In this document: positions 14,647-43,389 of the stretch, in pieces
Position numbering within the stretch: position 1 is the first letter of the stretch
Layout: each line of letters opens with the position of its first letter
Virus record (IMG/VR): IMGVR_UViG_3300031754_000005
Span: 1 to 58,765 of that record
Source: a virus
Taxonomy: Duplodnaviria > Caudoviricetes
Strand: one strand, 5' to 3'
DNA length: 58,765 nt
Position numbers and translations under genes: made by a program
The notes under the pieces: generated by a model
Told to the model about the DNA's origin: nothing
The model's database searches: none
Seen by the model: only the letters and a program-made list of their open reading frames with translations

Positions 14647-15182
14647 CAGCCCGGGTCCTCATGGAAGCCCATCACGACGCCATAACTGTTGCCGATTGGC
14701 ACACGCAGGCTCGGCTCATCGCGAATAAAATCGGCAAGACCCACCCTCTCCCGCCTGCTGCCGGCGCGCCCGCCAGGACCGCCATGGCCGATATGGAAAC
14801 CGAGAAAGGCCGCCAGGCGCCGAGCGGGTGGATCGTCGCCAACCAGCACCGTCGCCAGCTCCCGATAGGTCGTCATGACTTCGGCAAGCTGCCGGCGCGC
14901 TTGCCTGGCGACGGCCACCGGATGCGCGGTGATATCCTCCGACAAGACCAGCCAGACCGCGCCATAGGGCGACAGCAGCGACCCGCAGATGCCGCCGAGC
15001 GCGGCAACCCTTCCGTCGATCAACCAAACTCGGCAGATCGCGGACTCCAGGTAGCGATCACGCAGAGTGCGGTGCGGATCAAACCCGGCCTCGATGATGA
15101 TCCGGCGCTGCTCTCGGCGCATGCGCCGCGCCATCTGTCCGCAATGCCATAGTCGCGCCGGGCGAATTTCGTACCCGCTCAC
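14646..15182 (-). CDS. GNAT-like virion assembly protein (T7 gp13-like)
   Basis: GTG start overlapping upstream TGA; WLV ... RRLAAFLGF motif; synteny. Confidence 0.72.
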   Translation of the reverse strand: MSGYEIRPARLWHCGQMARRMRREQRRIIIEAGFDPHRTLRDRYLESAICRVWLIDGRVAALGGICGSLLSPYGAVWLVLSEDITAHPVAVARQARRQLAEVMTTYRELATVLVGDDPPARRLAAFLGFHIGHGGPGGRAGSRRERVGLADFIRDEPSLRVPIGNSYGVVMGFHEDPG

Positions 15183-18100
15183 CGCCGGAAGCCGGCCTGC
15201 TGGGCCATCTCGGCCATCTCGAGGTCGTCCGGGCCGGCCCTTGCCGCCGGGCGCGCCGCGGGCTGTCCGCGGCCCCCGGCCGGCTGGCCCTGCGGCCGCT
15301 GGCCGTAGCCGACTTCCGGCACATCTCCGGGCAGGATCTGCGGGACAAACGCCAGGACATTGAGCGGCAGCGGCAATAGCTGCTGCACCGCGATCTGCCC
15401 CGGCTTCTGCCACGATGCCGGCACCCGGGCGATAACATCGCCGGTGAAGAGCGGAAAGACCGTGCCGCCCGAGGCGGTCGTGTAGCTGGGCGGCGCTTCC
15501 GCGGCGCGCACTGCCGGCGGCAACGCCCAGTTGGAAAAGAGCGGCGAGGGCAGCAAGGTCGAGCTGTCGGCCTGGTTGGCGCCGCATTGCAACGAAGCCG
15601 AAGCCTCGACCCTGACCGTCGCCGCGCTGATCGCCTTGCGCTGGCCCTGGATCGTCGGCATTCCGGTGTCGAGATAGACCGATTGGAGTTGTGCGGCAAA
15701 GCCGAGCCCGAGCCGGACATTGCTCGCCGCGCGGTCGAGCACGACGCTGCCGTCCGCCGCGACGGTGCGCAATCCGACCGGGATCCCGTCGGCAAGCCCC
15801 ACCACCTGCCGCCCGGCCAGGTGCGAGAGCCCGTAGACGGTCGTGATCGGCGCGGCGAGGCTCCATGCCCCGGCCGCTTGCACGATCGGCGTCCCGCTGG
15901 GATCGTTCGGTAATATCTGCCGGCAGGGAGTGAGCCAGTTGCCGGTGACCTGGCTCGGGCCAGTGTAGCCGGTGACCAGCGCGATCCCGCCGCCCATGCG
16001 GATGATCTGGCCGACTGCGGCGCTGCTGAAAATCCCGGGCGAGCTGATGAAATTGACCCCGCTGCCTGAAGCGGCGCTGGCGGCGAGCATCGCGTTGGGC
16101 AGGGGCAATGCCGTCCCGATCGCGCAATCGACGCACCACGAATCCTCGAGCCCCCGCCAGATCCGGTTATCCATCCGTTCGACAAAGAACCGGGTAAAGC
16201 CCGCCGCGACCGGCCGCTCGACCACCAAGTAGAGTGCATCGACGGGCGGCTCGACGACGGCGCAAACCGAGCGCACCTGGCCTTGCGTGTCGTGCCGCGC
16301 CCAGCCGGCGACTTCCTGCTCCTTGAGCCAGGTGAGGCTCAACAGGATGCCGTCGTCGCGCACCATCCATTGGACGCGGTAGGGCTCCTCGCACCATGCC
16401 CATTCCTGGATCTGGTGGCCGATCAGCAGATGCGAAGAGGGCCAGGAAATATCGACGCCGGAATAGATGTTGAGATACACCTGGTAAGTCAGCGAGCGGA
16501 CGGTAAATCCCTTCGCCGATACATAGAGCAGATCCCAGTTGATCTTCTGCGGCGGCACGCTGGCGCTGGCGCCGCTCGAACCCTGCCGCACCGCGATCAG
16601 GTTTGACGGCGTGATCGGGGACGGGCTGGAAATAAAGTTCTGGCTGGCCGTCACCTGCCAGACCTCGTCGCCCGTAAAGGTGACGAGCCCCAAGGGCATC
16701 GACTGCATCCACTGCACCCCGTCGACGCGCTGCGACCACGGCGTCGCGGTGATCGCATCGGTATCGACGACCGGCACGGCAGTATCGAAATCGAGAAATG
16801 CGTCGGGCTGCGAAAACCAGATCGTATCGGGATTGTTGATCGTCTGGGCGTAGGCCCGGCGCTCCTGAAAATAGCTGACGACGCCGGGATAGGTGCCGCT
16901 CTGCGGCCCGATCGTCGGCGTCGCGGTGACGCTGGTGCCGTTGCCGCTAAAGACGAGCGTGTCGCCCGGCTGATATTTCTTGCCGCCATTCAGGATGATG
17001 ACCGCGACGATGAGCCCGCCGTTCGACGGGCTGAAAACGACCTGGCCCTGAAACCCGGAGCCGGTCGCGCTCGACATCGCGACCGTTGCTACGGTCCAGT
17101 CGCCCGAGGTCGCATTGATCGTGACTGCGGTCACCTGGCCCGGGGCAAACGGGTCTTTGTGCAAGGGCGGCGTCTGGGTGAAATCGGCCGTCACATCGTT
17201 GGCATCGACAAACTGGTTGCCAAAGCTCGACCCGACAAACCCGAAGATCGTCCCGGCCGGGATCGGCAACGAATTCGTGTTGCTGCCGCCCGTATTGTAG
17301 CCGGGCGGCGAGCGATAGATGCGGTATTGCCCGGCCGCCGGGACATTCGTCCATTGCACGACGTTGGAGCCGGCGGTCACCGCCATGTCGACGCCGTTGG
17401 TGACCTGCGCAATGCCGCTCGCGACCGATTCCTGCCCGGTCTTCGGGTCGATCGAGGTCACACAATAGGCGTAGGCGCAGGGCAGCGTCGGCGGGGTCGC
17501 GGTCGCGTTTGGCTGGACCGTCGCGATGACGGTGACCGATCCCGGCGGCGATACCCTGGCGCCCAGCAAGAGGGGTGCCATCGACCAATTTGTCGGGCCA
17601 AGGCGCGAGAGTTCCTGCGGCGGATAGTTCGGGTGGGTAAAGCTCATCACGTCGGCCGACTGCACCCATTTGAGGAGCGGCAGGTCGGCTGCGGCATAGG
17701 GCGTCGGCAGCGTATAGAGCCGGCTCGCGGTGCCGCCCGAGGTGTAGGCGAGATACAAGGTCGTATCGAGCGGGCCGCCGTCGAGATTTTCGAGCGTAAA
17801 GGCGTTGGTGGTGGCGCTGCCGACGATAGCGACCTGGCCGTTCAATTGCAGCATGCCGCCCAAGCCGGCAAACGCCACCCAGTCGCCGTTCGAGAAACCG
17901 TGCGCCGTCGAGTTGACGACTCCGGGATTGGCCTGGGTGACGCCGCTGACCGCTACCGGCGCCTCGACGACGTAGCCGCCCGCCGAGAGGAAACGGCAAT
18001 AATTGTCGCCGAATTCGAGCGCCAGGCCCTGGCTGATCGAAAACTGAAACGGCACAAGGCGCGGCTTCGCCTGCCCCAAATCGGGCCGCTGCTTCGAGCG

Positions 18101-18268
18101 CCCGCAATAGGCCGTGCCGGCGCGGCTATAGGCGCCGCCGCGGTAGCCGACGAACAGGTTCCGGCAGGTCCCGGCGGCCGAGCCCCACAGCGGAAGATCG
18201 ACGTGGCCAAACAGGCTCGGCGCGATCTCACCGTGCGCGAAGCTGGTTTTGATGAAGGGCGCAGCCAA
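15179..18268 (-). CDS. Tail tubular protein B / nozzle
   Basis: SF-x-GEIAP N-terminus, YP-x-VSYFQER, EQEVAGWARHDT; TTG start. Confidence 0.9.
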   Translation of the reverse strand: MAAPFIKTSFAHGEIAPSLFGHVDLPLWGSAAGTCRNLFVGYRGGAYSRAGTAYCGRSKQRPDLGQAKPRLVPFQFSISQGLALEFGDNYCRFLSAGGYVVEAPVAVSGVTQANPGVVNSTAHGFSNGDWVAFAGLGGMLQLNGQVAIVGSATTNAFTLENLDGGPLDTTLYLAYTSGGTASRLYTLPTPYAAADLPLLKWVQSADVMSFTHPNYPPQELSRLGPTNWSMAPLLLGARVSPPGSVTVIATVQPNATATPPTLPCAYAYCVTSIDPKTGQESVASGIAQVTNGVDMAVTAGSNVVQWTNVPAAGQYRIYRSPPGYNTGGSNTNSLPIPAGTIFGFVGSSFGNQFVDANDVTADFTQTPPLHKDPFAPGQVTAVTINATSGDWTVATVAMSSATGSGFQGQVVFSPSNGGLIVAVIILNGGKKYQPGDTLVFSGNGTSVTATPTIGPQSGTYPGVVSYFQERRAYAQTINNPDTIWFSQPDAFLDFDTAVPVVDTDAITATPWSQRVDGVQWMQSMPLGLVTFTGDEVWQVTASQNFISSPSPITPSNLIAVRQGSSGASASVPPQKINWDLLYVSAKGFTVRSLTYQVYLNIYSGVDISWPSSHLLIGHQIQEWAWCEEPYRVQWMVRDDGILLSLTWLKEQEVAGWARHDTQGQVRSVCAVVEPPVDALYLVVERPVAAGFTRFFVERMDNRIWRGLEDSWCVDCAIGTALPLPNAMLAASAASGSGVNFISSPGIFSSAAVGQIIRMGGGIALVTGYTGPSQVTGNWLTPCRQILPNDPSGTPIVQAAGAWSLAAPITTVYGLSHLAGRQVVGLADGIPVGLRTVAADGSVVLDRAASNVRLGLGFAAQLQSVYLDTGMPTIQGQRKAISAATVRVEASASLQCGANQADSSTLLPSPLFSNWALPPAVRAAEAPPSYTTASGGTVFPLFTGDVIARVPASWQKPGQIAVQQLLPLPLNVLAFVPQILPGDVPEVGYGQRPQGQPAGGRGQPAARPAARAGPDDLEMAEMAQQAGFRR

Positions 18269-18293
18269 GGCGGTGTGCTATCCTCGTAACGGG

Positions 18294-18315
18294 AAAGCCC
18301 CGCACGAGGCGGGGC
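18294..18315 (-). terminator. Hairpin with short T-run just upstream of the nozzle gene
   Basis: Minus strand GCCCCGC-CTCGT-GCGGGGC-TTTC. Confidence 0.45.
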
Positions 18316-18574
18316 GGAGGCGGCGGTTGAAACCTCGAAAGTACGGCCCGCGTGGCGTCGTTCTTGCCGTCATGCGATTGCCCGGGCCGACGCCCATGCT
18401 GCGAAGCGGGTCGGTTGCCGAAATCGCGCCGCTAAAGCGACGGGGCCGGGACTATGGTGACCCCCGGCCGCGCGAGCCGAGCGAGATCAGGGTCGAGCTT
18501 CGTGTGCTGAAGCGACTGGCAGGCCGGCGCCATCGAGCCAACAAGCGAGCCGCCCGGAATACGAAGGTGTTCGA

Positions 18575-18769
18575 ATGACGCGCAGCTACACGATCGGCCC
18601 GGATTTCAGCACGATCACCTGCCGCTGGTGCGGGCTCACCAGCCACAATCTGCGCGATGTTGCCGAGCGCTATTGCGGGCGCTGCAACACTTTCCACGAC
18701 GATCTGCCGCCTCAAAACACCGCGCCGCCATCGCCCCCGAACGCAAACCCCTCCCAGCCGAGGGAATAA
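18575..18769 (+). CDS. Mini zinc-finger protein, antisense to the late operon
   Basis: ITCRWCGLTSHN ... YCGRCNTFH. Confidence 0.7.
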   Translation: MTRSYTIGPDFSTITCRWCGLTSHNLRDVAERYCGRCNTFHDDLPPQNTAPPSPPNANPSQPRE

Positions 18770-19596
18770 TATCCGGGCAGCCCGACCCCGCTGCGACCAA
18801 AGCCGCCCCAGCCCCCGCCGCCGCTGCGAGCGCGCAGCCAGTCGGGCGTGTGATCGATCGTCTGCGGAAACCCGCTGTCGTTGGCGTTGGCGACCCGCGC
18901 CTCGCTGATCGCGGATTTCGCGATGGCGATCTGCTGGTTGCGCACCGTGATGGCGAGCTTTTTGTCGAGGATCAGCGGCATCGCGAGGCGCGCGCCGCAG
19001 ACCGCGGCCATCGCCTCCTCGAAAAGCGCGTCCCATTCCTCGGGCGCCAGCACGAGCCGGGTGTAGACAAGGCTCGCGGTCGGGACATCGGTCAATATGA
19101 CCCGCCGGCCGATCGGCCCCTGGCCTTCCGGCAGGTCAGGCAGGTTGTCCCAATCGGCCTGTCCGGCGATGGCCGGGAAGTCGTTGGACGAGGACACCAG
19201 AAACCGCCCCGGGATCAAGCTCGAACCGAGCGGGGTCGCCGCCAGCCCGGTCATGATCGGCACTGCGGTCGGCTGCGCCTGCTGCGCCCACGGCAGCCAG
19301 CGCGCCTTGACGCCATCCGAGGGCCACGCATAGGCATAGGTCCACGGTGGCTCGACCGTCCTTGCATAGGGCTGGCCGTTGGGCGCCAGCGTCTGCCCGG
19401 TGGCATCGCCCAGCAACAGGAGCGGCGCCTGTCTTCGGGCAAATCCCCAGTGTGCGGTGCGCAATAGTTGCCGGAGGGTCGGGCCGTAGATCCGCCGCGC
19501 CGCTTCACTAGCCGGGGTGCCGTCGGCGAAGCTGGCGATCAGCGTGCCGGCGCCGATCGCGTCGAGGCTGCGATTGATGATGTCTTCGGCCTGCAT
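18712..19596 (-). CDS. Tail tubular protein A / adaptor ring paralogue 4
   Basis: DIINRSL-IG, LLR-x-x-W-FARR, W-YAY-x-P-D, WDALF motifs. Confidence 0.85.
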   Translation of the reverse strand: MQAEDIINRSLDAIGAGTLIASFADGTPASEAARRIYGPTLRQLLRTAHWGFARRQAPLLLLGDATGQTLAPNGQPYARTVEPPWTYAYAWPSDGVKARWLPWAQQAQPTAVPIMTGLAATPLGSSLIPGRFLVSSSNDFPAIAGQADWDNLPDLPEGQGPIGRRVILTDVPTASLVYTRLVLAPEEWDALFEEAMAAVCGARLAMPLILDKKLAITVRNQQIAIAKSAISEARVANANDSGFPQTIDHTPDWLRARSGGGGWGGFGRSGVGLPGYYSLGWEGFAFGGDGGAVF

Positions 19597-19597
19597 C

Positions 19598-20233
19598 TCA
19601 GCCTCGGTTCGCTTCGGCGGCGCCGGTTAATGCGGCCTCTTCCGCCCGTTCGATCTTCTCGACCGCCTCGCCCTCCCTGAGCGCACGCACCAGTTTTTCA
19701 CCGAGGCGCTTCACCACGAGCGAGACAAACGAGGCATCCCACAGGTTCGGGTCGGTGACCCGGCCGGTGTAGACCGCCAGCGCGCCCTTGAGGTTGGAGA
19801 GGATGACTTTCTGCTGCGCCGTCGCCGCGCCGTTGCGATCAATCAGCGAATTGTCGTTGTCGACGCGGAAGACCGCGGGCTTGGGATCGAGGTCGAACAT
19901 CGCCCCGGGCGGCGGGACGATCGCCTTCAGTTCGAGGCAATCGGCCGGGTAGCCGTACTGGTAGAGAAACCCCGGAGGGGGATATTGCGCCGACCACGGC
20001 TGTCCAGGGTTGTACCCGCCAGGCGGCGGCGGCCCCTTCAGGAGGGCGAGCGGGATATTGGCCCGCCGCGCCAGCGGAAAACCGCCGGCACGCAAGAGTT
20101 CGTCGCGCACCTGGCGGTAGACTTCCAGCGCCGCATCGGCCGCGCGCGTCCCCTCTTCGAGCGAGGCGATGCGCTCGGAATAGCCGATCTCGACAAGAGC
20201 CTGATTCACCAAATCTTCGGGCGCGACGGTCAT
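19598..20233 (-). CDS. Tail tubular protein A / adaptor ring paralogue 3
   Basis: DLVNQAL-IG, YQYGYPADC, VILSN, VTDPNLWDASF. Confidence 0.85.
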   Translation of the reverse strand: MTVAPEDLVNQALVEIGYSERIASLEEGTRAADAALEVYRQVRDELLRAGGFPLARRANIPLALLKGPPPPGGYNPGQPWSAQYPPPGFLYQYGYPADCLELKAIVPPPGAMFDLDPKPAVFRVDNDNSLIDRNGAATAQQKVILSNLKGALAVYTGRVTDPNLWDASFVSLVVKRLGEKLVRALREGEAVEKIERAEEAALTGAAEANRG

Positions 20234-20234
20234 C

Positions 20235-20870
20235 TTACTGCCGCTGCGCCGCGGCTGCCGCGCGTGCCATCAATTCCGGCATCATCGGCCCGGTCATATC
20301 GCCGACATCGGCTGCTTCGCCGATCATCTGCTCGGCCATTCCGGCACGGGTGCGCGCGAGGTTGATGTCGTCGCGCAGGGCAAACGAGAAGAGCTTTGCC
20401 AGGAGCGCGACAAAGGCCTGGGTAAAAGCCGCGTTCCACGTCAGGGGGTCGGTGATCTGCGCATAGTAGCCGCAGACTGCGGCGGCCTGGTTGGTCGCGA
20501 TGACCTTGGCCGGGGTGCCGAGCGTCGAGTCGTTATAGGTCTTGAACCGCACCGGCTGCGGGTCGTTGTTCGGGTTCGGGATCGTGCCGTGGACATAGGC
20601 GATGCGCAGCGCGTCGGCCGGGTAGTTGTATTCCTGGCTGAACCCGAGAATTTTCGCGCCGCCGGCGGTCGGGGTCAGCGCCACCTCGCGAAACGAAAAA
20701 TCCCAGTCCTGCGATTGCAGGAGACCGTCGCGCGCCGGGCCGTAGACCTCGACCGCGACGCGCGAGGCGCGCGAGCCTTCGTAAATTTCAGCAATTGCGC
20801 GCGGGTAACCGCAGGCGCGCAATGCCGCATTGATGCAATCCTCGGGACTGGCATAACCGACCGCCATCAC
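20235..20870 (-). CDS. Tail tubular protein A / adaptor ring paralogue 2
   Basis: DCINAAL-x-CG, WDFSFR, EYNYPADALR, VIATN, ITDPLTWNAAF. Confidence 0.85.
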   Translation of the reverse strand: MMAVGYASPEDCINAALRACGYPRAIAEIYEGSRASRVAVEVYGPARDGLLQSQDWDFSFREVALTPTAGGAKILGFSQEYNYPADALRIAYVHGTIPNPNNDPQPVRFKTYNDSTLGTPAKVIATNQAAAVCGYYAQITDPLTWNAAFTQAFVALLAKLFSFALRDDINLARTRAGMAEQMIGEAADVGDMTGPMMPELMARAAAAAQRQ

Positions 20871-20890
20871 GTTACCTCAAATCGGTAAAA

Positions 20891-21448
20891 TCAGTTTTCG
20901 TCGACCAGTTCGGCGGTGTTGGCGTATTGCTCGGCCTCCGCCAGGAGCTCGCGGGCGAAGTCGGGCCGCCCAGCCAAGGCCATCGCGAGCGGATTGCTGA
21001 TCAGCCGCGCGACCGCCTCGATAAAGGCCGAGTCCCATTGGTTTTCGTTCGGCGTCGAGCTGGTGTAGACCGCGCTCGCATTTGCCTGGTTACTGACGAT
21101 GACCTTGGCCGCGAGCCCGTTGTCAAAGGCGAGCGCGCCGCGCACCGGCTGCGGATCGTTGACGTTGTAGCTGCCGGCCTGCGGGCGCAGCTGGCGCAGC
21201 CGCAGACAATCGGCCGGGTAGGTATATTCATGCGTCCACGGCGGGGGGATCGTGCCGCCCGCCGCGCTCAGCACATCGGTGCGCCGGGCAAAGGCCGGGT
21301 CGAGCCGGCGCAGCAGCAGGTTGACCGCCGGCGCGTAGATGACCTGGGCGGCGTTGCCGGCGACCGAGCCGTCGTTCAGTGCGGTGATCTGGACCTGGAC
21401 GCCCAGGAGCTCCAATGCTCTGTTTACGACGTCGGTCGAGGTTGGCAT
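20891..21448 (-). CDS. Tail tubular protein A / adaptor ring paralogue 1
   Basis: DVVNRAL-LLG, FARR, WTHEYTYPADCLR, VIVSN, WDSAF. Confidence 0.85.
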   Translation of the reverse strand: MPTSTDVVNRALELLGVQVQITALNDGSVAGNAAQVIYAPAVNLLLRRLDPAFARRTDVLSAAGGTIPPPWTHEYTYPADCLRLRQLRPQAGSYNVNDPQPVRGALAFDNGLAAKVIVSNQANASAVYTSSTPNENQWDSAFIEAVARLISNPLAMALAGRPDFARELLAEAEQYANTAELVDEN

Positions 21449-21458
21449 GGGAGGGGCC

Positions 21459-23363
21459 TCAGCAGTGGGTCACAATCCCATTCGTCACAGCATAGGAGCC
21501 GCCTGGCGCTCCTGCACACGTCACCCCCGCGATCCCGTTGGCGTAGTAAATTCCGGCTGCGTTGATCGTGCCGAGGCCCTTGTCGCCACCGGGCGGTGCG
21601 CCAAGCTGCAGCCCGGGGCCAAGAGCGGCAAGGGTCGTCGCGGCCGAGGCGCCGGTCTTTTGCAGCCAGCTAAAGCTCGGGGCGGCCAGGGTATCCGCAT
21701 TCCAGAAATTGACCGCGTGGTCGCCCGCAAAATGCTGCGTGATGGCGCTATGGAGCGTGCCCGAGGCGGGATAGATGCCAAAGTAGTTGCTTACTTCGAC
21801 AATGCCGTCTCCGCCGATACCGGCGCCGACCAGCAGAGCGTTGCTGAGCGTCGTCAGGCCGCTGGTGCTGAAGGACGCGATATTGGAGGCACCGCTGCCC
21901 AGTGTCTGAATCTGCAATGCGTTATCGATTGCAACCAATCTTGTACCATGGGCTTGATCGGTCACATCGCTGCGAATAGCAAACCCGGGAATATCGGAGC
22001 CGTCGTAAGTCCAACCGATTTCATATTGCCGCGGTATGTCGAGCACCATCGGTTCGGCCTGCGCGGTAAGAGAACCGGCGCCAAACACAATGCCGCGATT
22101 GGCGGTAGACCCGGTGCCGAAAGTCACATCGAACTTGGCGCCGGTGCCAGCACCACTCGACGACAACTGCGCAACCGGGCTGGAGGGATTGACGGTATAG
22201 GTCCCGGCGGTAGAGATCACCGCGCTGGTAACTATGCCGTTTGCGCCAACCGAAGTTACCCTCAGCACCCCGGCAACCGATGAAACGCCGCCCGCCAGAG
22301 TGATCGTGTCGTTCACCGCATAGCCGGTGCCGGCAGCGTTGACATCGCTGACGGATTGGAGTCCGGCGCCCTGCCCCTGATTGGTGATCCCGATAAAAGT
22401 CGTCAGCGAGTTCGGCGAGGAACCGCCGGCGCTCGTAACCAATTCGCCGCCCGCCCCAAGCCACAAGGCTGCGGTTGTTCCTGCATCGCCCAAATTATAA
22501 GGGCTGACGGTTATCGCATTGCCAAAGTTGGCGACCTCGATTTCAACACCGAGGACAGCGCCGGCCGAGGGATAGCGGGCGGCGGCATGATAGGCGCCTT
22601 CCGCCCCTAAACTGCTGTTGGCAATCCCGATCGTTGCAATGGGGAGACACGCAGCCTGGCTGAAACTTCCCCTCGCATCGCTTGAACGGCAGGCAAAGGC
22701 GCCGCCGATGCCGCCGATCGTGCTGTAGGATTCAAACTGGCTGTAGTCGTCGTAATAGAGGTATCCGCCGTTGGCGAATTTACCCAGCCAGGTCAGATCG
22801 TTCGGCAAATTGGTTGCGCTTTGTGCGCCGCCGACCAGGAGGCGGTCCCGTATGCTCCAGACATTTGCCGGTGGGATATTGGTCCAAAAACCGGCCGGTA
22901 CAGCGGGTGCATTTCTTGCAATGCTGTTCGACAGCAGCGTATTGGTGCACGCCGAGAGTGTGCCGTTGATCAGAAAATTGCAGGTCGGTGCCGCCCCGCC
23001 GCCGATGCTGTCGAGCGTGATGAGGCCGTTGCCGTTGCCGTCAAAGCCGAATTTGAATTCGCTGAAGGGGCCCGTCGCATACCCGCTGTAGAGCGCCAGC
23101 GACTGCCCGCTGTTAACCAGCGGCATCCCGGTCGGCAGCGTCCCGGGCTGATTGTTGTTGGCTGGCGCGCCGCCGGCCAGCGTCGGCCCGCCGGCATCCA
23201 GCACGCAGTTGCTGCCGGCATACATCAGGAGATGACCCGCCGTCAGCGCGCCGCAGTCGCGCAACGCGCCCTGCGCCCTTGCCGGGGCAAGCGGGAGCAG
23301 CATTGCGGGCGTTACCAGGACAAGAAAAAAGGCCGCCACGAGGGCGGCCCGAAAGCGGCGCAT
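21459..23363 (-). CDS. Fibre/receptor-binding-like protein with signal peptide
   Basis: MRRFRAALVAAFFLVLV...PARA-Q; Gly/Ser/Thr-rich; GGDKGLGTINA motif; 8 Cys in 4 close pairs. Confidence 0.75.
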   Translation of the reverse strand: MRRFRAALVAAFFLVLVTPAMLLPLAPARAQGALRDCGALTAGHLLMYAGSNCVLDAGGPTLAGGAPANNNQPGTLPTGMPLVNSGQSLALYSGYATGPFSEFKFGFDGNGNGLITLDSIGGGAAPTCNFLINGTLSACTNTLLSNSIARNAPAVPAGFWTNIPPANVWSIRDRLLVGGAQSATNLPNDLTWLGKFANGGYLYYDDYSQFESYSTIGGIGGAFACRSSDARGSFSQAACLPIATIGIANSSLGAEGAYHAAARYPSAGAVLGVEIEVANFGNAITVSPYNLGDAGTTAALWLGAGGELVTSAGGSSPNSLTTFIGITNQGQGAGLQSVSDVNAAGTGYAVNDTITLAGGVSSVAGVLRVTSVGANGIVTSAVISTAGTYTVNPSSPVAQLSSSGAGTGAKFDVTFGTGSTANRGIVFGAGSLTAQAEPMVLDIPRQYEIGWTYDGSDIPGFAIRSDVTDQAHGTRLVAIDNALQIQTLGSGASNIASFSTSGLTTLSNALLVGAGIGGDGIVEVSNYFGIYPASGTLHSAITQHFAGDHAVNFWNADTLAAPSFSWLQKTGASAATTLAALGPGLQLGAPPGGDKGLGTINAAGIYYANGIAGVTCAGAPGGSYAVTNGIVTHC

Positions 23364-24006: not shown

Positions 24007-26898
24007 CTAAAACGCCGACCCGAAGGCAAAGCGCGGATAGGTGTTCCAATCTGGCGTCCCTACCGAGTTCATCCGCGTGTTGGCATCGGTGATCAGTGCG
24101 TCGACCGCTGTCCCGTCGAGCGCGGTGATGCCCTGCGCCTTGAGGCGGTTCCACAGGGCGCGCCCGTTGGCGATGTAGGCGTTTGCGTTGTTGGCGCTGA
24201 CGACGCCCGTCGAGGTCACGCTGGTCGGTTGCGGCAGCACGTAGGCCGGCTGGAAGGCGGTGTTGAACGTGCCGCTGGTGTGGCAGCCGCTCGGCGTCGC
24301 CCCACTCGGTGGCGGCAGCGCAGCACCACCGACGGTCGCCGACAGGTCGAACGTGTAATTGCTGCCCCCGGTGTTGACCGTGTTCTTCAGGTAATACGGC
24401 GTGTCCGCCAGGTAGCCGCAGATCACGCCCTGGAAATTACCGTAGAGGAACTTGTCGCCATCGGTCGGCGTCCACCCGGTCGAGCTGGCGTTGGAGAGGC
24501 TGATCATCGGTGAGGATGCCGCCCAGGTAACCGGGCCGGGCACGGACGGCCCCCACTGCGCGTCGGACGAGATCATCGCATTGGCGTTCGACGCGCCCGT
24601 ATCGCTGCCGTTGACGTTGTGCTCGGTGTAGCCGTTGAGCGCCCAGCCGGAGAAGGTGGTCTGGTAATAGAGCCCCTTGGTCGCGAAGTTCTTCGCCCAG
24701 GTCTTGCAGTCGGCGTTGTTGTAAAGGTCCGCCGCCCAGGCGGCGATATGAGCGTTGTAGAAGAACTGCCAGCTTTCGCCCAGCAGCACGTCCTTGATGC
24801 TGTTGTCGCTGTTGAATTCCCCCATCGTCCAGTAGCCTTTGGCGATGGCGTAGGTGCCGAGGTTCGGCAGCGCCTGGTTGACCGGCCAACTGCAATTGGC
24901 CGCCGTCAGATCGTCGTACAGCTTGCCGATGTGCGACCCGTCGAAATAGGGATCTGGCGCCACCCGGCCGGCCAGCATCTCGCGGCGGAACGACCAGGCG
25001 GCATCGCGGTTCTCGGCGTCGCGCGCGGTAGCGATGCCGTAGGCGGCGACCGGATAGAGCGGGTTGCGGTGATTGGTCCCGCCGCCGACGTGCATCTGTC
25101 CGCCGAGTGCCGCCTCGATCCCGAGGTCGAGCACGAAGGCTTCGCCCGTCAGGAGATAGGCGTAGATAAAATTCTCGGAGCAGTGCGAGCAGTCGGCGTC
25201 GTCGAAGACGTACTGATAGGTGCTGGAGGGCGGCGGGGTCCACGAACCGTTTGGCCCCGGCCCAAAGCCGCTCCAGCGAAACTGTTGCTGGGCCGAGGAC
25301 GGCGCGGGCACCGGGTCGGTGCCGCCGGAATAGGTCGTGTTGGTCAGATTGGGATACTGCCGGGTCGCGTGGTCCCGGAAATTCATCCCGTCATGCACCT
25401 GCGACAGCGCGACCTGCCGCACCATCACGTCGTCAATCTGGTCCTGAATGTAGAAGTGACGCATCGCACCCGGCCAGAGCGGGCCGACATCGGCGTCGCC
25501 CGTGGTGTGGCGATCCGACGGCTGCGGGCCGATCGATGCCGAGTTCCACGCATAGGGCGCGCCGCCGTTGCAGGAACTGGCCTGCGCCACACACTCGTTG
25601 CTCGTCACGGTGCCGATCTGCGCAAGGTCGATCGGCCCCAGGACGTGCGACTTCTCCCAATAGGTCTGGTTGAACTTCGGCCTCAGGCGCGGGTCGGCGG
25701 CAATGCTGCCGGCGCCCTGGAAGAAGCGGCTGCGCACCGTCGTCGGGTCGGCGTCGACGATCGAGCCGAAATGCACGACGGCAAAAGCCGGGTTGAAGGT
25801 GTGCGTCCCGGTCCCGGCATCGCTCGGCGTCACCACGCCGCCGCCGATGCCATTGGTTCCGAAGGTCGCATTATGACTGGTGCTGCTGGAGACCGAGGCG
25901 AAGTAAAGCGTGTTTGCATCGAGCCCGGTCGGCAACGTGCCGGTGGTCGTCACGTAACCGGCGAGAATCTGATTGCCGGCCCCCACCTCGACGCCGAAAT
26001 AAAACGGATTGGTCGCGCCGGCCAGGACGAAGTTCGGTGATCCGCCCGTTGCGGTGAAAGTCGTCGCGGTCGGCAGCGTTGCGAAGTTTACCGTCGCCGT
26101 GCCGCTGCCGCCGGGGCCGACCGTCGTGTAGGAGATGGCGGAAAAGGCCCGGACGTTCTTGGCCGGCGTGTCGTAGTTGTACCACGGCTGGGTGATCCGG
26201 CCCCACTTCAGGAAGCCACCAAGAGCGCCCCCGGAGGCGGTCAATGCCGTGACGTACTCGTAATCCTCGAGCTGGCCGTGGGCCGTGCCGTCCTTGGTCG
26301 GCGACAGGTGGACGAGGTAGCGATCCTCGCGTCCGCACCCGCCGTCGAGCGTGTTGAACTGTTCGGCGTTGTTCGACCCCGATATTGTCGGGTCGTCGAG
26401 CCAGGCCCCCTCGTTGACGATGTTGGCGCCGGTGATCGGCGCGGCCGTCGCGTTGACGACGTAGTTCTGCGAATAGACCTCGGATCGTGCACGCGAGCCC
26501 GCCGCGGGCCACGAGCCGCCGGCCTGGATGTGAATTGTCGCGGAGGCGTTGTTGGCGGTGCTGGGAACCTTGCAAACCAGAAACATCGCCGTCATCAGGC
26601 TGCCGTCCTGCCCGGTCTCGTCCCAAGCGCGCTTTGCGCCCCAGGAATATGGCAGCACGTTGCCGCTGTCGTCCTTGAACACCGGCGCCTGACCGGACGG
26701 GATGTCGCCCTGCTTGAACGGGTGGGCGAAACGAACAAAGCCGTTGCCGATCGTGCTGCCGCTCTCGTTGACGACGGTCATCGTCGTCAGGTCACTGGGT
26801 GGGGTGCCATTGCTCCCACCACCACGAAGCAAGAAGGCATTGCCCGACCAGGGGGCAACAACAGCAGCAATAAAGACCAGTGCAGCGAGGGTGCGCAT
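24007..26898 (-). CDS. Large signal-peptide protein, possible polysaccharide depolymerase / spike
   Basis: MRTLAALVFIAAVVA; FAHPFKQGDIP ... W ... DGSL N-terminal pattern recalling rhamnogalacturonan-lyase-like proteins; aromatic-rich helical core. Confidence 0.65.
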   Translation of the reverse strand: MRTLAALVFIAAVVAPWSGNAFLLRGGGSNGTPPSDLTTMTVVNESGSTIGNGFVRFAHPFKQGDIPSGQAPVFKDDSGNVLPYSWGAKRAWDETGQDGSLMTAMFLVCKVPSTANNASATIHIQAGGSWPAAGSRARSEVYSQNYVVNATAAPITGANIVNEGAWLDDPTISGSNNAEQFNTLDGGCGREDRYLVHLSPTKDGTAHGQLEDYEYVTALTASGGALGGFLKWGRITQPWYNYDTPAKNVRAFSAISYTTVGPGGSGTATVNFATLPTATTFTATGGSPNFVLAGATNPFYFGVEVGAGNQILAGYVTTTGTLPTGLDANTLYFASVSSSTSHNATFGTNGIGGGVVTPSDAGTGTHTFNPAFAVVHFGSIVDADPTTVRSRFFQGAGSIAADPRLRPKFNQTYWEKSHVLGPIDLAQIGTVTSNECVAQASSCNGGAPYAWNSASIGPQPSDRHTTGDADVGPLWPGAMRHFYIQDQIDDVMVRQVALSQVHDGMNFRDHATRQYPNLTNTTYSGGTDPVPAPSSAQQQFRWSGFGPGPNGSWTPPPSSTYQYVFDDADCSHCSENFIYAYLLTGEAFVLDLGIEAALGGQMHVGGGTNHRNPLYPVAAYGIATARDAENRDAAWSFRREMLAGRVAPDPYFDGSHIGKLYDDLTAANCSWPVNQALPNLGTYAIAKGYWTMGEFNSDNSIKDVLLGESWQFFYNAHIAAWAADLYNNADCKTWAKNFATKGLYYQTTFSGWALNGYTEHNVNGSDTGASNANAMISSDAQWGPSVPGPVTWAASSPMISLSNASSTGWTPTDGDKFLYGNFQGVICGYLADTPYYLKNTVNTGGSNYTFDLSATVGGAALPPPSGATPSGCHTSGTFNTAFQPAYVLPQPTSVTSTGVVSANNANAYIANGRALWNRLKAQGITALDGTAVDALITDANTRMNSVGTPDWNTYPRFAFGSAF

Positions 26899-41003: not shown

Positions 41004-41551
41004 GCCGCCCTCTTATCCTTGAACCCCGGCGGCAGCACGATAGCACCGGGCGCCTTTACCTGCACCGGGCGGCTCTCTCTATGCGGGCCAGGCCGCATCG
41101 GCGGCATCAGCGCGCCCTGGGTCATGGGCGAGCGTCCGAGCGGTCGGTCGTGCCGGCGCTGCATCTGCCGGTGGATCTCGCGCAGTACCGTCGCGGCCTT
41201 CAGGAAGAGTGGCCCGCGGTAGTGCGAGCGCAACCAGTCGCCGATCTTCTGGTGCAGGGTGCCCATCATGTGCGAGACCTCAAGCCATCCGGCCGAGTCG
41301 TTCTCGCCCATTTGCACGGCTTCAAGCCCGTGCGTGCCACTGAAGCCAACGGGGGCGCCCACTCCGCCGGCGTCGTCGCGACACCACGCCAAGGCGCGGC
41401 AGGCGCCGGTGATCAGCTTTAATTCTTCCAGGAGCCGCAGATAGGTCGGGCCACGGATCGGCAGCCGCGCCAGCTTTTCGCAGTCCTCCGCCGCAAGGCG
41501 CATATTTTCCGACAGGCATGCCCAGATTTCGGCCTCGGTCGGGATGCTCAC
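41000..41551 (-). CDS. Hypothetical protein
   Basis: GTGA overlap with portal stop. Confidence 0.6.
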   Translation of the reverse strand: MSIPTEAEIWACLSENMRLAAEDCEKLARLPIRGPTYLRLLEELKLITGACRALAWCRDDAGGVGAPVGFSGTHGLEAVQMGENDSAGWLEVSHMMGTLHQKIGDWLRSHYRGPLFLKAATVLREIHRQMQRRHDRPLGRSPMTQGALMPPMRPGPHRESRPVQVKAPGAIVLPPGFKDKRAA

Positions 41552-43389
41552 GCCTGCCCTCCCGCCGGCTGTCCGCCGCCCGGCTGGGTTCCCATCATAG
41601 CCTGCACCGCCGATTGTCCGCCGCCGACATCGATGTGGCTCAGCCCCTCGGCTGCCTGCACCGCCGGCAGGGCCGCCGCCATCATCTGCCGCTGCTGCGC
41701 CGCCTTGGCGCGCTCGGCATCCGACGCGGTGACTTCAGCCTCGCTGTAGATGCCGCGCGCCGGGTAGCCGAGCCGGTCGGCATAGATCCGCGCGCCTTCG
41801 TCGAGGTTGAAGATCCGCAGCGGGTTCGGCAGTCCGGCCGCCATGGCGCCCTCGCTGAGCTTTGCCACGGTGCCCAGCGTCCGCTCGATCCCGGCGGTTT
41901 CGGCCGCTCGCTGCGCCAGTTTCATCATGCTGATGTATTCGATGGCGATCGGAACGCCGCGCAGCGACGGCGGCGGCGGCTTCAGGAGCCCGCGGCGTTG
42001 CATGATCGCGACGACACGCTGGATGGCGGGCGAGGCGAATTCGGTCTCAAACAATTCGATGACCGGCCCCAGCAACTGGATCTTCTCGCCCTTCCTCTCG
42101 GCGATCTCCAGTTCGTTCCGGGGCTGCACCCCCTCCATCTGGCTGATCATCAGGAAGACATCGACAAAGAATGCGCGGTCGATGCGCTTCTGCACGCCCT
42201 CGATATCGGCCGAGAGCGCCGGCATGCCGTGTCCGTCCACCTCGTAGAGCGGCCAGAACCCCTTTTTGCCGCCCTCGGTGTTGATGTAGGTGACCTCGCC
42301 CGGCAATATCGAAGTCGGCTCCATCTTCAGGGCCGGGTCGGCGCCCATCGGCGGGCGCACCATCTTGTCGATGTATTCGCCCTTCCTGCGCTGCTCGTGC
42401 TGCAGCTGCGTCGTGCCGCCCAATGCCACCATCCCGGGGCCGCGGCCATAGGCATCGTTCGATGTCTTCGACCAGCGCGCGACGACAAACGGGCGCTCGC
42501 GAAACCCGCGGCGCGACAATTCCGCCTCGGTCTTCTGCCCGCGCAGCCAATAGACTTCGCGATAGATAAAATCGCCGCCGACCACCGCGATCTTGTTGTC
42601 GGCCTTGCCGCGCGCCGCCAGCGGGAAATTGGGCTCGATCGCGTGCCCGACGACAAACTCGCGCTCGAGGCTCGCCCCGCCCTGCAGCCAATGCTGGCGC
42701 ACCTGCTGCGGGCAGTGGTCGAGCCTGAACCAATCGACGATCTGCGCCACGGTGTAGGTGTATTCGCGGTAAAAGCTGTCGACACTGAGGCGGCCGCCGA
42801 CACTGAGAAAATATTCCCCGGCGCACGGCACATAGCAGCGGATTACGTCTTCGAAATCCTCGTAGATCAGCATCGGCGCGGTGCCGAAGGTAACGAGGTC
42901 CTGAAAGACCTGCGCGCCCTCGGTGTAGAAGTTGCTGCCGCCCAGCACCGCATAGATCCGCTCGGTTGTGTCGTCGAGCCAGGCGGCGGCGGCGGCGTCC
43001 GGCTCAAAATTCGGCAATGCCGTCCCGAGCTTGAACCACGGCCGCGACGACGACATGACGCCCGCCTGCAAGCCGGCCGAGCAGACGCCCATCGCATAGG
43101 TCGCCGTCTCGTCGATGATCGCATCGTTGACCGAGTTGCCCCGGTTCAGGTTGTTGGCGGTGATGACCCAGTGGTAGCGGTAGGGCAGGATCAGCCGCGC
43201 CAGGCGCGCCCAGTGGCCCCACCAGCTGTAGCGCCACACCCGCAGGCTCGCGAGCCGGGCTTCGAGATGAACGTAAAGGTCCTGCCAATCAGCCTCGGCG
43301 CGCGGTTCCGGCGCGCTGAGCGGCTGCTCGGCAAGAAAGCTCGGCCCCGCCCGCTCGTAGGGCGCCACCGCCTCGGCTGCTGCTGCCAT
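41548..43389 (-). CDS. Portal (head-tail connector) protein
   Basis: RPWF-L, SNFY, FGTA, YGRGPG, E-x-ER-x-EK-x-x-LGPV. Confidence 0.93.
   Translation of the reverse strand: MAAAAEAVAPYERAGPSFLAEQPLSAPEPRAEADWQDLYVHLEARLASLRVWRYSWWGHWARLARLILPYRYHWVITANNLNRGNSVNDAIIDETATYAMGVCSAGLQAGVMSSSRPWFKLGTALPNFEPDAAAAAWLDDTTERIYAVLGGSNFYTEGAQVFQDLVTFGTAPMLIYEDFEDVIRCYVPCAGEYFLSVGGRLSVDSFYREYTYTVAQIVDWFRLDHCPQQVRQHWLQGGASLEREFVVGHAIEPNFPLAARGKADNKIAVVGGDFIYREVYWLRGQKTEAELSRRGFRERPFVVARWSKTSNDAYGRGPGMVALGGTTQLQHEQRRKGEYIDKMVRPPMGADPALKMEPTSILPGEVTYINTEGGKKGFWPLYEVDGHGMPALSADIEGVQKRIDRAFFVDVFLMISQMEGVQPRNELEIAERKGEKIQLLGPVIELFETEFASPAIQRVVAIMQRRGLLKPPPPSLRGVPIAIEYISMMKLAQRAAETAGIERTLGTVAKLSEGAMAAGLPNPLRIFNLDEGARIYADRLGYPARGIYSEAEVTASDAERAKAAQQRQMMAAALPAVQAAEGLSHIDVGGGQSAVQAMMGTQPGGGQPAGGQA

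Follow-up and report, generated by a model that had tools for sequence, protein, structure and literature searches.

Stacked tail rings have been described in crAss-like phages. According to the crAss001 report (PMC10172136), the tail barrel of that phage consists of five stacked dodecameric rings made up of four ring-protein paralogs, R1-R4 (gp43, gp40, gp35, and gp34; PDB 7QOJ and 7QOG; a 23-nm barrel); its authors state that other podoviruses have just one such ring, and that many crassviruses have three ring genes, the fourth being a recent duplicate. The T7 adaptor, as described in PMC6702177, assembles into its 12-mer on the portal only. It wraps its C-terminal helix around the portal stem and contacts the nozzle through the alpha1-alpha2 loop, which takes two alternating conformations there; the C-terminal extension varies among adaptors, being a helix in T7 and a flexible stretch in others, and is thus no strict hallmark of them. 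The connector of Cobetia phage Carin-1 (gp37 in PQ119497.1, PDB 8CK1 chain E, called gp46 in PMC13730344) is treated in PMC13730344 as an ordinary adaptor, composed of a helix-bundle domain, a beta-dock domain, and a C-terminal domain. Here, we describe four tandem genes in the IMG/VR virus record IMGVR_UViG_3300031754_000005, whose whole 58,765-base stretch we refer to as the window. These genes are best explained as functional paralogs of the T7 gp11/Carin-1 connector type of adaptor, which in podoviruses joins head to tail as a dodecameric ring set between portal and nozzle. What is new is that the array is a lineage trait, that its last copy is orthologous to the single adaptor of sister phages, that the extra gene in the window is a duplicate of the middle type, and that selection acts on all copies. 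By analogy, the array probably gives a longer tail built of stacked rings, an arrangement so far known only in gut crAss-like phages.

An initial annotation, made by reading the window alone, had proposed four consecutive, tightly spaced genes of 185, 211, 211, and 294 amino acids (aa) that encode paralogs of the tail adaptor (tubular protein A). The open reading frames (ORFs), their spacing, and their G+C content at third codon positions (GC3 0.81-0.86, as in real genes of this genome) bear out this layout on the minus strand, and all four products match PHROG 394 as follows:

20891-21448, minus strand: copy 1 (group C1), 185 aa, a short adaptor paralog ending directly after helix alpha4, without C-terminal arm and without beta-dock insertion; PHROG 394 E 1.6e-29
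20235-20870, minus strand: copy 2 (group C2'), 211 aa, an extra, lineage-restricted duplicate of the middle type; PHROG 394 E 7.5e-23
19598-20233, minus strand: copy 3 (group C2), 211 aa, the middle paralog, with a proline-rich loop (PPPGGYNP type) and without C-terminal arm; PHROG 394 E 1.5e-24
18712-19596, minus strand: copy 4 (group C3), 294 aa, the canonical adaptor, with beta-dock insertion and C-terminal arm, then a Gly/aromatic tail; PHROG 394 E 1.9e-25

The upstream gene ends 10 nt before copy 1, and copy 1 is followed by copy 2 after about 20 nt; copy 2 may start equally well at the ATG at 20867 or at the GTG at 20870. The remaining two junctions are 1 nt each: TAA-g-ATG between copies 2 and 3, and TGA-g-ATG between copies 3 and 4. 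Proteins of the C2 type end in Gly in 35 of 38 orthologs (38 loci), mostly as -RG or -QG, directly before the 1-nt gap and the next ATG. Since the last codons of copy 3, which ends in -RG, contain GAGG (window 19598-19603) ahead of the copy 4 start, the conserved terminal Gly may reflect the need for a ribosome-binding site and not a property of the protein.

Copies 2-4 share 34-36% identity with copy 1, with 28 invariant alignment columns. Among the motifs that the initial annotation had ascribed to all four proteins, D-x-x-N-x-[AS]-L-x-x-x-G, V-I-x-[ST]-[ND], and W-[DN]-x-x-F are indeed present throughout; Y-x-Y-x-x-P-x-D holds in copies 3 and 4 only, and its shared core is Y-x-x-P-x-D (Y75, P78, and D80 in copy 1). 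The C-terminal ends differ: nothing follows alpha4 in copies 1 and 3, the tail of copy 2 is short and unrelated, and copy 4 carries an arm motif of the type A-R-x-x-[DN]-[GA]-N-[ED]...P-D-W-[IL]-x-x-R, as in single-copy relatives. A search of the whole record found the same four places and no fifth copy.

The adaptor identity of the four genes and their paralogy are secure. PHROG 394 ("tail protein") is matched over near full length by every copy, with E values far beyond chance, and none of them has a Pfam family. Against solved structures, a profile of the four copies gave one strong match, 8ck1_E (the Carin-1 "connector protein"; E 4.4e-24), which was also matched by profiles of C1 (30 orthologs, E 1e-22), C2 (40 orthologs, E 4.2e-23), and C3 orthologs (E 2.4e-20), and by copy 2 alone (E 3e-11). 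AlphaFold2 (AF2) models from ortholog alignments reached a mean predicted local distance difference test score (pLDDT) of 86.8 for copy 1 and 75.1 for copy 4, in which residues 241-294 (the last 54) are disordered. In both models, a beta domain lies between a pair of N-terminal and a pair of C-terminal helices, giving an up-down bundle with an inserted beta "fiber dock."

In Foldseek searches, 8ck1_E was again the best match for both models (copy 1, E 3.9e-12; copy 4, E 2.3e-11), followed by the tail of LME-1 (9efk), the adaptors of PhiM1, P-SCSP1u, and A4, T7 gp11, KP32 tail tubular protein A, and the crAss001 rings; for copy 4, the match to T7 gp11 (7box_N) has E 1.2e-3. VIA-align scores for copy 1 are Z 14.9 to the Carin-1 connector (8ck1_E; root-mean-square deviation 4.4 over 167 residues), Z 10.9 to the LME-1 adaptor (9efk), Z 8.0 to a crAss001 ring (7qoj_F; 159 residues), and Z 7.5 to T7 gp11 (6r21_M). 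Thus, of the three comparisons suggested in the initial annotation, T7 gp11 and the crAss rings were recovered with copies 1 and 4, and P22 gp4 was not; neither P22 gp4 nor Sf6 gp7 is among the Foldseek or VIA matches listed, which is no proof that the folds differ.

To place the array, we collected 95 loci: 80 were kept from 225 confirmed loci of a pattern-seeded IMG/VR scan, 14 came from a scan of species-representative genomes, and one from a scan with copy 2. Copies were counted with a hidden Markov model of the window's four copies, and loci are sorted below by whether the array is flanked by sequence:

Three copies, more than 700 bp on both sides: 30 loci
Three copies, at a contig edge: 24 loci
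Four copies, more than 700 bp on both sides: 2 loci (window not counted)
Two copies, always cut by a contig end: 4 loci
One copy, more than 700 bp on both sides: 28 loci
One copy, at a contig edge: 7 loci

In the three-copy loci (54 of 95), the order of the products is always about 190, 205, and 295 aa, with the nozzle gene next, and the three groups keep this order across loci whose orthologs share only 35-69% identity. No complete two-copy array was found among the 95 loci. Four copies are not the basic state: the lineage norm is three orthologous groups, to which the window adds one duplicate of the middle group. Among contigs of at least 40 kb, multi-copy contigs (n=11 with the window) measure 51-68 kb, and single-copy contigs (n=13) measure 41-49 kb in 12 cases and 63 kb in one, all of these being contig sizes and not proven genome sizes. 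Array records with a named source include a Rhizobium isolate chromosome (L083), a Bradyrhizobium contig from a metagenome-assembled genome (MAG) with four copies (L082), and Hyphomicrobiales and Rhizobiales MAGs. A further three-copy array lies on a 3714-base contig of a MAG labeled Patescibacteria (L081); this label is probably a binning error, as every other named multi-copy record is Hyphomicrobiales.

A tblastn search of 50,697 deposited phage records (INPHARED) with copy 1 matched 82 records, at a single place in 82/82, and with copy 4 matched seven, at a single place in 7/7, so that deposited relatives carry one adaptor, as the initial annotation had stated of T7/BPP-1/P22-type podoviruses. 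Of 401 genomes drawn from the order to which the L083 Rhizobium isolate belongs, 51 have a PHROG 394 match; adjacent matches occur only in the L083 isolate itself, which was picked for its array. Where a genome has two matches (11 cases), these lie on separate contigs or no less than 445 kb from each other. In the literature that we could search, which leaves out most subscription journals, there was no report of several adaptor paralogs in a non-crass podophage.

Some arrays contain gaps between copies (L004, L008, L017, L042, and L044), which we considered as possible hidden paralogs; they hold endonuclease genes instead, with no adaptor match even at E 100. On the same strand as the adaptors, L004:7065-7835 and L017:1485-2198 encode Endonuclease_7 (PF02945, E ~2e-20), L042:1358-1918 encodes HNH_3 (PF13392), and L008:7344-7805 and L044:1064-1519 are look-alike CxxC...DHDH ORFs. 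These look like homing endonucleases landing at array junctions. A 1625-aa fusion of last copy and nozzle at L086:1085-5959 was rejected as an artifact: its reading frame crosses a run of 100 N in a MAG contig.

The history of the copies was traced with two trees, one built with FastTree from 139 distinct copies and one with IQ-TREE from 61; for the latter, 14-15 rows were drawn at random from each class, the window's four were added, and the long-branch row L071 was omitted. In both trees, copies group by position and not by genome. Support in the 61-row tree (Shimodaira-Hasegawa approximate likelihood ratio test, SH-aLRT) is 99 for C1, 94 for C2, and 100 for C3, and the deepest split separates C3 plus the single-copy adaptors from C1 plus C2 (SH-aLRT 90). 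Copy 3 groups with the second copy of three-copy loci. In the alignment, C3 and the single-copy adaptors have two features in common, an insertion in the beta-dock domain and a C-terminal arm whose conserved motif leads into an aromatic or glycine-rich tail, which accounts for their grouping in the tree; C1 and C2 stop directly after the last bundle helix. Because only C3 keeps the insertion and arm of the single-copy form, the last gene is well supported as the copy that has stayed closest to the original adaptor, and C1 and C2 as truncated, arm-less derivatives. The copies are not equivalent: only the last retains the full ancestral architecture.

Copy 2 and the second copies of L095 (71% identity to copy 2) and L082 make up one clade (SH-aLRT 96), which lies within the C2 group (97; 59-row tree). 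As the C2' copies form one clade inside C2, a single later C2 duplication in the sub-lineage with the window, L095, and L082 is well supported as the origin of the fourth copy; L004, the closest relative by copy 1, carries three. Relative to L095, the ratio of nonsynonymous to synonymous substitution rates (dN/dS), which is rough at this distance, is 0.22-0.25 for all four copies (0.25 for copy 2), indicating that all four are under purifying selection. Altogether, a history of one to three to four copies with the last copy ancestral is well supported. In this history, one ancestral adaptor of about 250-290 aa gave rise, once, to the Hyphomicrobiales-linked clade with contigs of about 51-68 kb and three orthologous groups in fixed order, C1 (~190 aa), C2 (~205 aa), and C3 (~295 aa), ahead of the nozzle gene; C1 and C2 lost insertion and arm and diverged, and C3 kept both.

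In family and fold, the window copies are like the adaptors of Carin-1, epsilon15, phiV10, and BPP-1 (PHROG 394; profile E as above). Unlike Carin-1 and the epsilon15-, phiV10-, and BPP-1-type phages, each with one adaptor gene, the window has four, three of them shorter than the canonical form and without the C-terminal arm. The copies also resemble T7 gp11 and KP32 tail tubular protein A (PDB 6R21, 7EY7, 7BOX, and 5MU4) in the helix bundle with beta fiber dock, and the C-terminal extension of copy 4 stands at the place of the portal-embracing helix of T7; in contrast to the single gene and single ring of T7, there are four genes, with 11-15% identity to T7/KP32 and Foldseek E values of 1e-3 to 4e-2. 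The initial annotation's reference to several paralogous stacked rings in crAss-like phages agrees with crAss001 as described above, and the lineage shares with crAss001 several diverged adaptor-fold paralogs per phage, conserved across a lineage, with three genes common and a fourth by later duplication: at least three such genes are kept in 54 three-copy and two four-copy loci of the 95. The two differ in that stacking is solved in crAss001 and proposed here, in that the array genes are adjacent, and in that the hosts are alphaproteobacteria, not Bacteroidota.

We found no sign of descent from the crassvirus R1-R4 genes: the likeness is one of fold only (VIA Z 8.0 and 5.5; 9-12% identity). 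Because the copies branch next to single-copy adaptors of PHROG 394, the array duplications are taken to have arisen inside this family, independently of the crAss rings. The array may therefore work like the crAss barrel, and is not a member of the crAss ring gene family.

The array sits in the structural module of a complete-looking genome (CheckV estimate 91%), whose G+C content is 64-70% along the window and is given as 66% overall. Judged by its portal (PF12236), capsid (PF20911), and nozzle (PHROG 376), the phage is classed as an epsilon15/BPP-1/Carin-1-type podophage, which upholds the BPP-1-like lineage named at the outset. It is an uncultured short-tailed phage linked to soil alphaproteobacteria (Hyphomicrobiales-linked clade). 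The module contains terminase, portal, capsid, a block of large fiber-like genes, the four adaptors, the nozzle, and internal virion proteins (one with an SLT domain), so that portal and capsid genes come before the array and the nozzle gene directly after it, as in Carin-1, where connector gp37 is followed by nozzle gp36. Further features of the module are:

41548..43389, minus strand: portal protein, 613 aa; PF12236 Head-tail_con E 6.3e-120; PHROG 332
21459..23363, minus strand: fiber/spike-like protein, 634 aa, with a Sec-like N-terminal leader (from sequence), directly upstream of copy 1
18269..18711, no strand: 443-bp spacer from copy 4 to the nozzle gene, without a minus-strand gene (ORF list)
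15179..18268, minus strand: tail nozzle, 1029 aa, the next gene downstream of copy 4; PHROG 376 "tail protein" E 3.5e-140

The portal is the expected docking partner for the topmost ring. A nozzle homolog follows the last adaptor copy in multi-copy and single-copy loci alike, among loci that extend that far. The PHROG 376 profile has 712 positions versus the 1029 residues of the nozzle, in which residues ~101-182 form an inserted small beta domain matching PF16190 (E1_FCCH, 30 bits, barely over the cut-off) and PHROG 584 ("major tail protein"). On its plus strand, the spacer region has two ORFs: 18575-18769 encodes 64 aa with two CxxC pairs, has a gene-like GC3 of 0.80, and overlaps the end of copy 4, and 18249-18578 encodes a very basic protein of 109 aa. 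A Pfam search with both gave no match.

The fiber/spike-like protein (21459-23363) shares only its N-terminal ~135 aa, at 41-46% identity, with the product of the gene upstream of the array in L095, L004, L030, and L053. Fibers usually combine a constant anchor with a variable tip. Sec-like starts, with a basic start, a hydrophobic core, and A-x-A then Q, occur in large fiber/spike-like proteins encoded at window 21459-23363 and 24007-26898, at L083:1883-4399, and in other multi-copy loci, and in many relatives the leader is followed by the motif LQ-G-G-P-x-T-P-G-H-x-P-x-Y. The L083 homolog of the fiber gene has a sub-threshold pectate-lyase-like match (24.5 bits vs a cut-off of 27). A signal peptide on a virion fiber would be odd, and the leader-bearing protein, if really exported, could not dock on a tail assembling in the cytoplasm.

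The initial annotation had suggested that the rings may serve as separate docking collars for exported fibers and that copy number be surveyed against them. Using a strict regular expression of our own on loci with at least 2.5 kb of upstream sequence, not dereplicated, we found the leader plus conserved motif upstream of the array in 21/34 multi-copy and 0/29 single-copy loci. The leader-bearing protein travels with the multi-copy lineage; because the multi-copy loci form one clade, this shows co-inheritance, not co-evolution.

How might the paralogs be used in the virion? By analogy with crAss001, each paralog would form its own 12-mer ring, and the rings would be coaxially stacked from portal to nozzle, lengthening the DNA channel into a tail barrel as the crAss001 ring proteins do, via independent duplication. 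Because the T7 adaptor oligomerizes only on the portal, one ring could template the next. With ~4.6 nm allowed for each ring, as the five rings of crAss001 span 23 nm, the neck would be ~14-18 nm long with three or four rings, versus ~5 nm, and the tight, partly coupled gene spacing would yield near-equimolar synthesis. Two ring orders can be imagined. In one, C3 would remain on the portal, since it carries the arm, and C1 and C2 would be inserted below; in the other, gene order and the adjoining C3 and nozzle genes would give portal-C1-C2'-C2-C3-nozzle. Segment charges compared between the groups differ little and are not diagnostic of ring order. Our favored reading is that every gene supplies a homododecameric ring of its own in a stack from portal to nozzle, with about even odds of being right.

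Several points weigh against this stacked arrangement or loosen its footing. C3 looks ancestral at both its portal-facing and its nozzle-facing ends, which fits C3 alone bridging the two equally well. Nozzle length shows no clear difference between multi-copy and single-copy loci, and no fused multi-adaptor protein turned up when the C2 profile was run against proteins of 383-2000 aa, a blank that is weak evidence. The 95 loci were not dereplicated and come from a pattern-seeded search; AF2 models cover copies 1 and 4, copies 2 and 3 being assigned by sequence; and dS values of 0.95-1.7 against L095 are near saturation, which makes dN/dS rough. One complex prediction, of copies 1, 4, and 3 with ortholog alignments, gave 0.00, 0.36, and 0.10 against a mark of 0.32 and speaks neither for nor against binding.

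The alternative that survives best is that only C3 bridges portal and nozzle, with the arm-less C1, C2, and C2' off the DNA channel as a peripheral collar or fiber dock for leader-bearing spikes, as an assembly factor, or as a decoy. C3 alone keeps the single-copy architecture, with its insertion, arm motif, and acidic alpha1-alpha2 loop; C1 and C2 lie together on the far side of the tree, the leader-bearing fiber gene travels with the array, and adaptors surrounded by accessory rings occur in A1002, DEV, and GP4 (PMC13730344). The collars described there, however, are jelly-roll proteins and not adaptor paralogs, and the one solved case of adaptor paralogs, crAss001, is a coaxial stack (PMC10172136). 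Moreover, C1 retains the whole helix bundle and beta-dock fold (VIA Z 14.9 to the Carin-1 adaptor), and residues invariant across all copies are kept in C1 and C2. We consider a peripheral role a serious rival to the stack, though a less likely one.

Another possibility is that paralogs mix within rings, for example with C1 and C2 alternating 6+6 so that two genes fix two conformers for the 6-fold nozzle and C3 forms a second ring, or with all of them in one ring. The two alternating conformations of T7 gp11 subunits at the nozzle (PMC6702177) would suit such a scheme, as would the equal amounts suggested by coupled translation and the position of C1 and C2 as each other's closest groups in the tree. 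A single mixed ring is nevertheless disfavored, because three types per 12-mer give 4-fold symmetry, a misfit to the 6-fold nozzle, and because the sample contains no two-copy intermediate (0/95 loci with a complete two-copy state). A fourth copy would upset the 6+6 scheme, and the crAss001 rings are homo-oligomeric (PMC10172136), so mixing in either form strikes us as quite improbable. That the copies are redundant, alternative, or decaying, with a single one used per virion, would fit the rarity of the four-copy state (2/95 fetched loci plus the window) and the three copies of L004, and is very hard to reconcile with the intactness of every copy, the three groups in the same order across such diverged loci, dN/dS of about 0.2-0.3, and conserved features particular to each group.

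Returning to stacked rings, the fullest version of our proposal is a second, independent multi-ring tail barrel in temperate soil Hyphomicrobiales podophages: an arm-bearing ancestral adaptor would sit on the portal, with two (here three) arm-less rings between it and the nozzle, so that the tail was lengthened from its middle, and the array would have been acquired together with a Sec-leader tailspike-like family that may dock on the new rings. We offer this combination tentatively, as somewhat more apt to fail in one of its parts than to hold as a whole.

If the adaptor has multiplied independently in a second lineage, ring addition would be a general, repeatable way to lengthen short tails. 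A longer tail might help these phages cross thick capsules or exopolysaccharide, or store ejection proteins. The natural series from one copy in sister phages to three and then four could show how a ring-ring interface evolves from portal- and nozzle-binding surfaces, and because L083 is a three-copy prophage in a cultured Rhizobium isolate, the prediction is directly testable. For annotation, the short C1 and C2 genes are adaptor paralogs and not hypothetical proteins.

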